Positions 38,624 through 62,480 are shown, counted from the stretch's first letter. The stretch: DNA of 64,000 nucleotides from a virus (IMGVR_UViG_3300032167_000002:152286-216285); one strand, 5' to 3'. A program made the numbers and translations. The notes: generated by a model not told the origin, from the sequence alone.

Positions 38624-39514
38624 TTACATTCCTTCCTCTATATAAATTACTTTATCAACATATTTGCGGTCCTCACCTTTGAGAATCGGCATATCGTAGT
38701 CAATACCGGTTTCACGAGTCCAGGCAGTGCCACGCTTCCAACGAGTTGGAAAATCGTTCCAGTTGATACCTTTTTGCTCGTGGAGCATATCTTGGATTAC
38801 GCTACAAGAGCAACCCTGGAGCTTACTGTGAGAGAAGAATGCCTGACCAACCATCTGAATGGAGTTGCGGGTTGCGTCAAGCTGGCGCCAGTAAATCAGA
38901 TTACAGGCTTCCTCTTTGGGAATGTTGAACACGCGAGAGTCGAACATAGCACCAATAGATGCTTTCTCGCAGTAAAGACTATATAGCTTATCCTGCTGCT
39001 CCCACCATTCGGGGTCAGTGTGACGAGGGTCGCTCCACTGACGGCTACGCCAAGTACCAACTTCCTCGGCAAAATATTTGTTGAACGCCATGGTTGCCAT
39101 AGAAGCAGAGATAGAACACATCTTCTGTACTTCATAATCGAACCAGGCACTGGTATCGAGAGTCTGGTAGTCAATCAACAGGAGAGTGATTTCGTCAGAC
39201 TGGGTGTAACCGAAGACACAACCCTGGATATTTCTACACAGATGTTCCATGGTTTTTACCATCGCATTTCCCAGCACTTTATCGAAAGGCTTTTGGAAGC
39301 CACGAGTGAAAGTGTGGAAGGCTTTACCGTCGAGGCGAATTGCGACGGGCATTCGTCTCACCAAACGGGTTTTCGGCACCTGCTCGTAGAAAGTTTTCAT
39401 ACGAGTGCCAAGAGCATCATTCACTGGCATTTTTTCTCTTCTCCTTCCAAGCTGCACAGTAGTGTGTAGGTTTTTCATATTTGCGGCTTCTCTTACAATA
39501 GCATTTTCCTTCAA
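38624..39514 (-). CDS. Thg1-like protein (tRNA-His guanylyltransferase family, 3'-5' nucleotide addition)
   Basis: VAIRLDGKAFHTFT matches the Thg1 signature. 296 aa. Confidence 0.7.
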   Translation of the reverse strand: MKENAIVREAANMKNLHTTVQLGRRREKMPVNDALGTRMKTFYEQVPKTRLVRRMPVAIRLDGKAFHTFTRGFQKPFDKVLGNAMVKTMEHLCRNIQGCVFGYTQSDEITLLLIDYQTLDTSAWFDYEVQKMCSISASMATMAFNKYFAEEVGTWRSRQWSDPRHTDPEWWEQQDKLYSLYCEKASIGAMFDSRVFNIPKEEACNLIYWRQLDATRNSIQMVGQAFFSHSKLQGCSCSVIQDMLHEQKGINWNDFPTRWKRGTAWTRETGIDYDMPILKGEDRKYVDKVIYIEEGM

Positions 39515-39761
39515 TGCCGCGTGTTGAAAACGGACCTCTGCCGTCGCCGCAAGTATCGCAGCATTTTACTTCTTGACTTTTGGAAAATACATCCCTAAAC
39601 AGGGCTTTTGTTAATTCGCCAGATTGCCATTTTTCAATGGTAGCCATGGCGACTTCTTCATCAACGACGAACTTCGCCAATTTTCTTACCTCCACGCTTA
39701 GCCTTACGCTTGGTAGCGTTATCAATGGTTTCACGATGGATAGTCTGAATTTTGGAAGCAA
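39417..39761 (-). CDS. Hypothetical Cys-rich protein
   Basis: 114-aa track ORF. Confidence 0.25.
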   Translation of the reverse strand: MLPKFRLSIVKPLITLPSVRLSVEVRKLAKFVVDEEVAMATIEKWQSGELTKALFRDVFSKSQEVKCCDTCGDGRGPFSTRGIEGKCYCKRSRKYEKPTHYCAAWKEKRKNASE

Positions 39762-40401
39762 AACCAGACTTGAGGAATTGAGTGAAGTTCACAGGCTCCC
39801 AACCAATGACATCAGAGCAGACGTTCAGGTGGTTAGCTCTCTTATGACCGGCATGGTCATGACCATGGATGTTAAACAACCAAGGAATTTCCACAGGCTC
39901 ATGAGTCAGAATCAACTTCTCACCAACGATGAGGGCACCCTCATACACCTCATCGAACAGCAGGTTGTCTGCAGTTGCGACCCAACGCTTAAAAGGAGCG
40001 TGAAACTCCCAAGACTCATTGATGGTAATTTTCCAATTATGGAAATACATTCTCATTTCAGCGAGAACTTCTTCCTTGGTGAACTTATCCTGGTCATAAA
40101 CACGAGTAATGACCTTGCGCTTGTAGTTAGAAGCGCCGGCATCATGGTTACCCATAATCAGAACCTTATATTCAGCACGAAGCTGACGCACATACTCGAT
40201 GTCACCAACGTCGCCCAGAATAACCAGACAGTCGCGGCGGCCGCACTTTGCGTTGATTCTCTTAACCTGCTCTTCGGCGGAAGGACGACCCTTAATGCCG
40301 CCGGCAAGTTCATCATCATTGAAGTGAGGGTCGGAATAAATCCAGACAGTCTGGTGCTTTTCGCCCCAGTGCTGGAAAGAATCATAGATACCAGCTAACA
40401 T
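39661..40401 (-). CDS. Calcineurin-like metallophosphoesterase (paralog 3)
   Basis: ILGDVGD...GNHD motifs. Confidence 0.65.
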   Translation of the reverse strand: MLAGIYDSFQHWGEKHQTVWIYSDPHFNDDELAGGIKGRPSAEEQVKRINAKCGRRDCLVILGDVGDIEYVRQLRAEYKVLIMGNHDAGASNYKRKVITRVYDQDKFTKEEVLAEMRMYFHNWKITINESWEFHAPFKRWVATADNLLFDEVYEGALIVGEKLILTHEPVEIPWLFNIHGHDHAGHKRANHLNVCSDVIGWEPVNFTQFLKSGFASKIQTIHRETIDNATKRKAKRGGKKIGEVRR

Positions 40402-40806
40402 AATGTCGCCTCCTTTAACCTTTAATTAAATACTCAACAGTAGTAACATACAGAGGAATGAAACCGAATAAGAACCATCCCTTCCAGGTTCGTTCATGCC
40501 ACTTGCGATAATGCTTATCATAACGGCTGGTACACCAAATGTACTTAATAATCATAGTATCAATCCCCTTCTAAAACTTTGATTACTCTATCACAGAGTT
40601 CTTCCATCTGTTCCTTTGTGATTTTTCGCCATTTCCAACACCAAGAGATTCGATTGGAAATCCATTCAATACTGCGTGTGTGGTAAGGCTTATAATTCTC
40701 GTAAGATTGGAGAGCCTTATCAATCTCGCTATAAAACTTATTCATAACTTTCTCCTCTCTTTACTTTCTATATATATTATAACATATTTTTTATAAAAAA
40801 TCAATA

Positions 40807-40833
40807 AAGACCCTATGGTTGCCATAGGGTCTT
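40807..40833 (-). terminator. Terminator hairpin AAGACCCTATGGTTGCCATAGGGTCTT
   Basis: Stem-loop next to the promoter at 40774-40804. Confidence 0.55.
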
Positions 40834-40836
40834 TAC

Positions 40837-41133
40837 TTAAAATTCAATCTTACTGTCTTTAGACTTGCCTTTAAAAGCATTTTCGGCTTTTTCAATTAAA
40901 TAGCCAATATAGTTAGGTTCTCTGTTCTCACGATATTCAACTGCCCAAGAGTAGGTCTTAGGTAAGAATACAACAACAAGAACAACCCAAACGACAGGCC
41001 AGCCAATTAATGCCAGAAGAGCAAGAAGAAGTGTAATCGCTAAGGCACCTGCGGCCGCAGTTCCCACGGCAATTAGATAATCTTTAATCCTCATAAACAT
41101 ACTCCTTATAACTTTTTGCGTAATCGGGAGCAC
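40837..41133 (-). CDS. Small membrane protein
   Basis: 98 aa with two transmembrane helices. Confidence 0.3.
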   Translation of the reverse strand: MLPITQKVIRSMFMRIKDYLIAVGTAAAGALAITLLLALLALIGWPVVWVVLVVVFLPKTYSWAVEYRENREPNYIGYLIEKAENAFKGKSKDSKIEF

Positions 41134-41279
41134 AAATTTTTACCTCGAAATGGTCGTCGTCTATATCGCTGGAATAGAATATTTCATGTAATGCCATTTG
41201 AATGTCATTTACATAATCTTCTAATTCATCTTCTGGAATGTCCTTAATTCTCATTACAAAATGAAATGGAATAACAAAA

Positions 41280-61769: not shown

Positions 61770-61886
61770 AAATTGTCGTTATGGGCCACCTCAACCATAA
61801 CAACGAGCCCACCTTATTCCGATCCTATTGGGCCCATCCCCGTATTCGGATTAGCGGTCATCCGCAGAGGTTCCGAAAGACCTCGA

Positions 61887-61963
61887 TGGTACGGGTTGAG
61901 GGACTCGAACCCCCGGCCTACTGGTTCGTAGCCAGTTACTCTATCCAACTGAGCTAAACCCGC
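61887..61963 (-). tRNA. tRNA-Arg (ACG)
   Basis: GCGGGTT TA GCTC AGTTGGAT AGAGT A ACTGG CTACGAA CCAGT ... AACCCGT A CCA. Confidence 0.75.
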
Positions 61964-61984
61964 ATATGGTGCGGTTTTCCGCAC

Positions 61985-62221
61985 TTAGGAATTTGCGTAT
62001 TTCTGTAAAAAAGCAGAGAACTTATCAGCATTAGCGTGGTCGCCAACAACGATATTGACATCCTTGCCTAAAATGGTAAATAAACCAAGCAGGCTTCGAG
62101 CATCAAGCTGACCATATGAGGTACTGATGTAAATAGGGAAATCTTCCTTACTTGCCAATTCGCTAAAACGGAATAAATCCTCTTGAGTTTCAAACTTTAC
62201 AGGCTGAATCACAAAACTCAC
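61985..62221 (-). CDS. Hypothetical protein
   Basis: 78-aa track ORF. Confidence 0.3.
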   Translation of the reverse strand: MSFVIQPVKFETQEDLFRFSELASKEDFPIYISTSYGQLDARSLLGLFTILGKDVNIVVGDHANADKFSAFLQKYANS

Positions 62222-62235
62222 CCCTTTTCATCTAT

Positions 62236-62313
62236 TGGTACCCCAGAAGGGACTCGAACCCCTGACACTGGGATTAGAAATCCCATGCTCTATCCAACTG
62301 AGCTACTGGGGCG
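62236..62313 (-). tRNA. tRNA-Arg (TCT)
   Basis: GCCCCAG TA GCTC AGTTGGAT AGAGC A TGGGA TTTCTAA TCCCA ... CTGGGGT A CCA. Confidence 0.75.
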
Positions 62314-62402
62314 TAAAAAAACTAGACAGAATTACATTAAACATTTCTTAAACCCAATATAAGCGTTTTGTGTAAAAAGTAATTTGCTGTGTCTGTCTAA
62401 TA

Positions 62403-62480
62403 TGGGGTGAGTGAGCGGACTTGAACCGCCGATCTCCAGAGCCACAATCTGGCGCTTTAACCAACTAAGCTACACTCACA
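62403..62480 (-). tRNA. tRNA-His (GTG) with C73 but no genomically encoded G-1
   Basis: GTGAGTG TA GCTT AGTTGGTT AAAGC G CCAGA TTGTGGC TCTGG ... CACTCAC C CCA. The nucleotide at -1 is the terminal A of the upstream tRNA-Gly CCA. Confidence 0.75.

Follow-up and report, generated by a model that had tools for sequence, protein, structure and literature searches.

Among the genes of a large phage from an abundant gut-phage lineage are one for a Thg1-like protein (TLP) and one for a histidine tRNA (tRNA-His) without an encoded guanosine at position -1 (G-1). Both lie in the 64,000-nucleotide stretch of viral DNA analyzed here (IMGVR_UViG_3300032167_000002:152286-216285, hereafter the window). The reading put forward in this article, for which we judge the balance to be about even, is that the TLP is a generalist enzyme of tRNA 5'-end repair that also adds G-1 to a phage-type tRNA-His that is not strictly dependent upon it. 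Addition of G-1 opposite the discriminator base C73 of this tRNA can be, and probably is, one of several reactions that the enzyme carries out on different substrates. We do not think that it is the reason for which the phage keeps the gene, which belongs to the RNA-repair and tRNA-maintenance gene set of many large, tRNA-rich phages. The observations set out below comprise the structures of the two genes, the family membership of the enzyme, the conservation of the junction upstream of tRNA-His, and the distribution of both features across phages.

The Thg1-like protein and the tRNA-His gene

The mechanically called open reading frame (ORF) at 38624..39514, on the minus strand like all genes of the window, matches the Pfam Thg1 profile PF04446 at 2e-28 (99.3 bits, cut-off 29.2) and PHROG 4717, 'tRNA-His guanylyltransferase', at 3.4e-83, which bears out the assignment to the Thg1 family that an earlier, sequence-only reading had made; only the start has had to be moved. 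Translation almost certainly begins at the ATG at 39430, because an AAGGAG ribosome-binding site lies upstream of it, public gene calls agree, and homology to the TLP of Bacillus thuringiensis (BtTLP) begins there. The gene then spans 38624..39430 and encodes 268 amino acids, a product called in exactly this form on 20 public contigs. BtTLP is also the best match among solved structures (PDB 4KGK, 2.5e-52), with both domains aligned, and is followed by archaeal MaTLP (1.1e-10) and by yeast, Candida, and human Thg1 (about 1e-5); the Thg1C domain falls below its Pfam cut-off (18.5 vs. 26.3 bits). By these matches, the ORF is classed as a bacterial-type TLP, closer to the characterized TLPs than to eukaryotic Thg1.

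The BtTLP residues D30, D75, E76, K43, R28, R131, R147, E12, and H35, which are catalytic or nucleotide-binding (PMC3701042), are all conserved in a HMMER alignment to 4KGK, their equivalents being D62, D107, E108, K75, R60, R194, R210, E44, and H67 in the numbering of the 296-amino-acid ORF. The protein is predicted to be a template-dependent 3'-5' nucleotidyltransferase that rebuilds tRNA 5' ends. BtTLP adds G-1 opposite C73 of tRNA-His with a kcat/KM of 5500 M-1 s-1, equal to that of yeast Thg1 (Rao et al., 2011, PMC3061083); its non-templated addition opposite A73 is poor, and it shows a preference for the repair of 5'-truncated tRNAs, whatever their identity (PMC3061083; PMC3701042). Like BtTLP (4KGK, 4KGM) and other bacterial and archaeal TLPs, the window protein would be expected to perform templated 3'-5' addition, including that of G-1 opposite C73 (PMC3061083). 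It differs from BtTLP in being phage-encoded and in having about 37 residues inserted where the first aligned block ends and the second has yet to begin (query 152-188), and the window genome, unlike B. thuringiensis, offers a natural tRNA-His substrate without an encoded G-1.

This tRNA-His(GUG), with GTG in the gene, runs from 62479 to 62403 on the minus strand and is supported by ARAGORN, by the Rfam tRNA model (69 bits), by reading of the minus strand, and by covariation across 14 alleles. Its acceptor stem is GTGAGTG/CACTCAC, U8 and A9 are present, the D stem is GCTT/AAGC, the anticodon loop is TTGTGGC, and G1, the discriminator C73, and CCA are all encoded. Immediately upstream, in the same orientation, lies tRNA-Gly(GCC) with its own encoded CCA (62556 to 62481, minus strand; ARAGORN; Rfam 71.8 bits). 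Reading of the sequence leaves one spacer nucleotide between the two genes, at 62480 (T in the gene, U in the RNA), which is position -1 of tRNA-His. Across the junction the order is thus A76 of tRNA-Gly at 62481, which is position -2, then U at 62480, and then G1 at 62479; no G precedes G1, and no G-1 is encoded. The sequence-only reading had placed the gene at 62403-62480, directly abutting the tRNA-Gly CCA, with A at position -1. Its C73 and its missing G-1 are confirmed, the latter by 15 other contigs as well as by the minus-strand sequence, whereas the upstream end has to be set at 62479, one nucleotide intervenes between the two genes, and position -1 is U. A register in which 62479 would itself be G-1 was tried and rejected, as it disrupts U8/A9 and the D stem as well as the 7-bp stem that is followed 3' by C73 and CCA.

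U at position -1 precludes the 8-bp acceptor stem by which RNase P is redirected. U-1·C73 is unpaired, which places window-type tRNA-His outside the canonical bacterial arrangement of G-1:C73 and an 8-bp acceptor stem, and its C73 also separates it from the alphaproteobacterial G-1-independent type, in which the absence of G-1 is combined with A73 and a co-evolved histidyl-tRNA synthetase (HisRS). C73 is the discriminator able to template G-1 for a TLP that depends on Watson-Crick pairing. In the proposed sequence of events, RNase P would cut after the U at 62480, leaving a 5'-monophosphate on G1 of tRNA-His, and an exonuclease would trim the extra U from tRNA-Gly-CCA. The TLP would then use ATP or GTP to activate the 5' phosphate of tRNA-His and would add G opposite C73, by which the G-1:C73 identity element would be restored for a host HisRS that presumably requires it. 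RNase P cleavage directly in front of G1 is favored by U at position -1, a positive determinant (PMC3245924), and such a cut would provide the 5'-monophosphate substrate for the TLP.

It is quite possible, if rather less than probable, that there is no functional link at all. The tRNA-His would be used as encoded, as it seems to be in T4-like phages, either with G1 and its 5' phosphate as the terminus or with U-1 retained, the latter after an RNase P cut shifted upstream by one nucleotide to the exact end of tRNA-Gly; the TLP would only repair host or phage tRNAs with damaged 5' ends, such as a host defence nuclease might leave. Of the features at position -1, the 5'-monophosphate is described, ahead of the base, as the major HisRS determinant (PMC3245924), so that a retained U-1 could partly serve, although the unpaired U-1·C73 should send RNase P to the +1 site and not to the -1 site. 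Once C73 and a 5'-monophosphate on G1 occur beside a BtTLP-like enzyme, some G-1 addition would be hard to avoid. Loss of G-1 is also reported to impair charging by bacterial HisRS strongly, which speaks against use of the tRNA as it is encoded.

The junction itself is not peculiar to one assembly. Junctions of relatives were found in public assemblies through the small protein that adjoins tRNA-His (start variants of 78 and 75 amino acids), and 15 further contigs, mostly from different ENA and Logan samples, each carry tRNA-Gly-CCA, one T, and then G1 of tRNA-His, giving 16 with the window and five distinct tRNA-His alleles; in one of them (L209), the 3' end of the upstream tRNA-Gly also differs. 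In a more distant relative, a 146,780-bp ENA contig (L224), a sixth allele, likewise without G-1, is fused as CCA-T-G1 to tRNA-Ser(GCU). When these six window-type alleles (group A: the five and that of L224) are aligned with eight sister sequences (group B), the four cloverleaf helices are 100% paired in all 14 distinct sequences, both sides change in 14 of the 21 pairs, and C73 (14/14) and CCA are invariant, whereas the pair -1:73 is U·C in the six window-type alleles and G:C in the eight of group B. Taken with the compensatory stem changes, the 15 other contigs indicate that the G-1-less junction is real and maintained, and an assembly artefact or a dead gene was rejected on the same evidence.

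The sister sequences come from a clade, comprising IMG/VR 3300018495_000082 (L081) and ENA contigs L226-L230, that is collinear with the window over 51-64 kb. In these contigs, tRNA-Gly is followed by about 160 nt and then by ...GATAT-G(-1)-G1, with C73, which is the canonical bacterial arrangement (G-1:C73, cut by RNase P at -1). Window-type tRNA-His shares C73, G1-C72, and the encoded CCA with this arrangement; the difference is that the sister clade has U at -2 and G at -1, whereas the window has U at -1. Since the sister clade has both the spacer and the encoded G-1, the fused form without G-1 is derived. The derived state in relation to this closest syntenic clade (L081, L226, and L228) is what might suggest that the tRNA-His is decaying or misassembled and that its missing G is accidental, a notion to which we attach hardly any probability and which the 16 contigs, five alleles, compensatory stem changes, and invariant C73 and CCA effectively refute. 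The full tRNA array of the relatives, moreover, has 41-45 tRNAs for all 20 amino acids and only one tRNA-His, so that a working tRNA-His is expected. In the closest IMG/VR relative, the L001 contig, the TLP is 80% and a sigma factor 88% identical to those of the window, and the exact patterns of the 5' half of the window tRNA-His and of tRNA-Pro(UGG) have no match in it; L231 has no tRNAs at its end. The host of the lineage is hinted at by a Bacteroidaceae label of a metagenome-assembled genome on P0123 and by nothing else.

Distribution of TLPs and of tRNA-His without G-1

A tblastn search of 50,697 isolate phage records found TLPs in 164, which with few exceptions are large or jumbo phages and for the most part are already annotated with a tRNA-His guanylyltransferase. 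At least 509 IMG/VR contigs carry a TLP, and a collection of 5.8 billion proteins holds at least 8000 relatives at E ≤ 1e-20. With such numbers, the description of the TLP as a rare phage enzyme in the sequence-only reading is inaccurate. The isolates include Bacillus Bastille-like phages, phage G, Rak2-like, Lak, and XacN1-like phages, and phages of Caulobacter, Brevundimonas, and Sinorhizobium; at least 23 of the 164 come from Caulobacter, Brevundimonas, Sinorhizobium, or Agrobacterium. The last three genera belong with Caulobacter to one alphaproteobacterial clade that is independent of G-1. Caulobacter is placed in a small clade with a tRNA-His that lacks G-1 and a HisRS that makes no use of it (PMC3245924), and the presence of TLPs in phages of genera in which G-1 is thought to be irrelevant favors the absence of a link between enzyme and tRNA. 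The same can be said of TLPs that occur beside a tRNA-His with an encoded G-1, as they do in the L029/L094 contig (TLP 62% identical to that of the window), in L079, and in Bacillus phage G. TLPs are thus widespread in large phages whatever the G-1 status of the tRNA-His or the type of host HisRS.

The converse situation is found in T4-like phages of Escherichia, Klebsiella, Serratia, Proteus, and Aeromonas, which have a tRNA-His with U-1, G1, and C73 and no G-1; examples are E. coli phage AR1, Serratia CHI14, Klebsiella Roth68, Proteus ABTNLPp2, and Aeromonas L9-6 (L391-L395: NC_027983.1 68409-68484; NC_041996.1; PQ657815.1; KY290956.1; PQ821890.1). A BLAST search of isolate phages with tRNA-His as query, which picks up a small and biased sample, matched 155 Escherichia and 141 Klebsiella phage records of this kind. 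These genes resemble that of the window in U-1, G1, C73, and a usually encoded CCA, and the acceptor, D, and T arms of CHI14 tRNA-His are identical to those of window-clade allele d, a resemblance that also counts toward the absence of a link; unlike the window gene, they are preceded by a normal leader and are not fused to an upstream CCA. No T4-like phage, and no Escherichia or Klebsiella phage, is among the TLP matches listed; both genera lie outside the top ten TLP organisms, so that each can account for at most 4 records. In IMG/VR, too, there are phage tRNA-His genes that combine T at -1 with C73 (e.g., L084, L124, L134, and L145). G-1-less phage tRNA-His thus appears to be common without a TLP. 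A literature search found no paper on how the U-1/C73 tRNA-His of T4-like phages acquires histidine identity, and a search of full texts found none that links a phage TLP to a G-1-less phage tRNA-His.

Presence of a TLP and absence of G-1 are therefore not strictly coupled across phage genomes, given the T4-like phages, which are absent from the TLP matches listed, and the TLPs that accompany an encoded G-1. This bears most directly on the idea of a dedicated, co-evolved pair, in which the TLP would be kept chiefly to mature the phage's own G-1-less tRNA-His and histidine decoding would be made independent of the host's unusual RNase P cleavage. Such a pair would accord with the conservation of the G-1-less junction in a TLP-positive lineage and with archaea, in which the lack of an encoded G-1 is always accompanied by a Thg1 homologue (PMC3245924). 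It would also accord with TLP-positive Bacillus Tsarbombavirus, in which tRNA-His(GTG) likewise lacks G-1, although this tRNA is atypical in having C1-G72, A73, and C at -1 (L222/L223: KX961630.1 28051-28126; OK499977.1 27739-27814). We nevertheless hold a dedicated pair to be distinctly improbable, as TLPs are far more widely spread than G-1-less tRNA-His, G-1-less tRNA-His occurs in phage groups that are not among the TLP matches listed, the two genes of the window lie 23 kb apart, the location of the TLP gene varies among relatives, and the enzyme is of the non-specific type and not of the anticodon-reading eukaryotic type (PMC3701042).

The reading of a generalist repair enzyme that also adds G-1 has its own difficulties, several of which would be equally at home if enzyme and tRNA were unconnected. 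The T4-like phages, with U-1/C73 tRNA-His and no TLP among the matches listed, suggest that TLP-independent use of such a tRNA exists and could apply here. Three contigs of the sister clade, L081, L226, and L228 (138.8, 140.8, and 178.6 kb), are not in the best-80 TLP lists from two queries, nor are they among the 80 listed loci anchored on a neighboring protein that resembles major vault protein (MVP). In L020 (10265-10267) and L021, the TLP frame is interrupted by TAA at a conserved codon that in homologues encodes Gln (CAA), which is either a pseudogene or a read-through site. L020 is the only other TLP contig that could be connected with a G-1-less tRNA-His: by its equal length of 146,780 bp it is taken to be the contig of L224, and its tRNA-His would then be the one fused, as Ser(GCU)-CCA-U-His, without G-1. 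The neighbors of the TLP gene are shared by only about 7 of the 80 listed TLP loci. Finally, the 5' terminus of tRNA-His is read from its gene alone, and the addition of G-1 is deduced from it. The functional link drawn by the sequence-only reading thus survives in part: the enzyme family, C73, and the missing G-1 stand and the chemistry is plausible, whereas TLPs that occur with G-1, and T4-like phages with no TLP among the matches listed, speak against a specific pairing. The link is plausible, not specific.

Genes and RNAs surrounding the pair

The genes around the TLP fit an RNA-repair setting, as far as their predicted functions go. A putative ATP-dependent RNA ligase (33993..35411, minus strand), 3.2 kb downstream of the TLP gene, matches PHROG 968 RNA ligase at 4e-68 and the Pfam PHA02142 OB-fold at 30.4 bits, with RNA_ligase just under the cut-off (26.5 bits) and TIGR02306 below it. 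A DEDD (RNase T/DnaQ-like) 3'-5' exonuclease that may act on RNA or DNA is encoded at 36020..36928 (minus strand; Pfam RNase_T 8e-17; NCBIfam DnaQ-type matches all below cut-off). Directly upstream of the TLP gene is a metallophosphoesterase (39661..40401, minus strand; Pfam Metallophos 9.3e-6; PHROG 547 3.6e-20), and a second one is encoded at 41280..42152 (minus strand; Pfam Metallophos 2.1e-9; PHROG 1649 5.4e-21). A nucleotidyltransferase-like protein at 42645..43532 (minus strand) is weakly assigned, with PHROG 388 'nucleotidyltransferase' at 2.6e-15 and no Pfam, NCBIfam, or PDB match, and a DUF2828 protein with the PHROG name 'RNA-binding protein' lies at 46506..47333 (minus strand; Pfam DUF2828 9.6e-30; PHROG 850 2.5e-62). 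A sigma-70 factor gene is also close to the TLP gene. The RNA ligase and the two metallophosphoesterases lie within 5 kb of the TLP gene, and these three, the exonuclease, and the nucleotidyltransferase-like gene all lie within about 14 kb of it.

Phage Thg1 has been placed in RNA repair, restoring nucleotides at 5' ends, in a survey of jumbo phages (Iyer et al., 2021, PMC7824862). The window resembles the RNA-repair sets described there in having an RNA ligase, two metallophosphoesterases, a DEDD exonuclease, and a nucleotidyltransferase-like gene near the TLP; it differs from them in that its gene order is kept in a minority of relatives and in that no polynucleotide kinase and no clear CCA-adding enzyme were identified in the window. 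Because so few of the listed TLP loci keep these neighbors, any 'repair module' is a loose one, and the TLP gene lies within 10 kb in only 14 of the 80 listed loci anchored on the MVP-like protein. That protein, of 838 amino acids (30734-33250, minus strand), has a major-vault-protein shoulder and repeat domains (Pfam 2e-23), and its relatives, 53-93% identical, occur on at least 120 IMG/VR phage contigs, often near an RNA ligase and a DUF2828 protein. Beyond it lies an NAD-salvage cluster (24169-30641, minus strand) with nicotinamide phosphoribosyltransferase, NAD synthetase, and a Sir2-like protein; on sibling contigs, isochorismatase-family and phosphoribosyltransferase genes are found in addition among the public gene calls.

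Of the phage tRNA array, the portion inside the window (50363..63674, minus strand) has 24 tRNA genes by ARAGORN, confirmed by Rfam, with CCA encoded in 23 of the 24 and U at position -1 in 17 of the 24, usually as an ATAT leader. Comparison of L211-L220 with the window over 50-64 kb shows small homing-endonuclease-like ORFs (PDDEXK_5, HNH, and GIY-YIG) that come and go between tRNA genes in arrays that are otherwise near-identical, and tRNA-His alleles of mosaic appearance, which together suggest frequent recombination within the array. Several structured RNAs are interspersed among the tRNAs, all on the minus strand: a full-length ROOL RNA (Rfam RF03087, 328 bits) at 57682-58295, between tRNA-Gln(CUG) and tRNA-Tyr, in a region conserved in L081; a drum RNA (RF02958, 78 bits) at 62889-62999, between tRNA-Thr(AGU) and tRNA-Val; and, near tRNA-Lys at 51749-51836, a partial OLE RNA match, to the 3' part, at 53 bits, just above the gathering score. 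A promoter-like repeat of about 60 nt, which reads TTGATTTTTATAAAAAAATATGTTATAATATATATGTAAGATAAAG and is followed by a ribosome-binding site, occurs in four minus-strand copies (51676-51740, 47518-47594, 30618-30701, and 21145-21226), and several copies are also present in L081.

Two suppressor tRNAs with anticodon CUA (53742-53891, minus strand) adjoin without a spacer and have U·C and U·U at 1:72, with G73. A 1:72 mismatch together with G73 is a glutamine-like feature, and the pair suggests that in part of the genome TAG is decoded as Gln. Another gene, tRNA-like and with anticodon UCC (61602-61675, minus strand; L081:10500-10571), has no CCA, and its first pair is A·A in the window and A·C in L081; elsewhere in its acceptor stem the two phages differ by compensatory changes, so that its structure is conserved. 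The 1:72 mismatches of the two suppressors and of this Gly-like gene were considered as possible substrates for 5' editing by the TLP; for the suppressors, glutamine identity fits U1 and G73 equally well.

Relation to known systems and significance

Post-transcriptional addition of G-1 has a likeness in Dictyostelium mitochondria, where DdiTLP2 acts in G-1 addition to mitochondrial tRNA-His. The existence of DdiTLP2 is recorded in PMC5041481, and the archaea that add G-1 (e.g., Methanothermobacter, Methanopyrus, and Pyrobaculum) are like the window in having no encoded G-1, C73, and a TLP in the same genome (PMC3245924). The present case differs from both in that tRNA and enzyme are viral, the synthetase is presumably that of the host, co-occurrence across phages is not strict, and the system is known from its genes. 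If real, it would join some archaea and Dictyostelium mitochondria as an instance of G-1 addition opposite C73 by a TLP.

The absence of G-1 from T4-like phages, from the gut-phage clade of the window, and from Bacillus Tsarbombavirus also invites a bolder view, which we consider unlikely: that phage tRNA-His as a class has dropped G-1 and that large phages with complete tRNA sets bring a TLP, so that tRNA-His could be charged only by way of a step under phage control. Were this so, G-1 addition would be either a switch by which histidine decoding is tied to phage gene expression or a means of evading host factors that recognize tRNA-His bearing G-1 or cleave it. Nowhere else in the bacterial world, moreover, would there yet be a natural setting in which a bacterial-type TLP is needed for tRNA-His identity.

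Should the link between enzyme and tRNA be incidental, the window would present an ordinary pairing of two already annotated phage features. The U-1/C73 tRNA-His without G-1 is in any event common in phages and apparently undescribed, and it raises the question of how a G-1-dependent HisRS charges such tRNAs. The bacteria studied to date either encode G-1 or do not need it, and their TLPs have been given a vague 'repair or quality-control' role as a consequence (PMC3061083; PMC3701042). In the lineage described here, an intact TLP occurs with a complete tRNA set and with a conserved C73 tRNA-His without G-1, and this lineage would thus present a natural substrate for the G-1 activity of a bacterial-type TLP; its value lies in being a natural test bed for the role of these enzymes in vivo.

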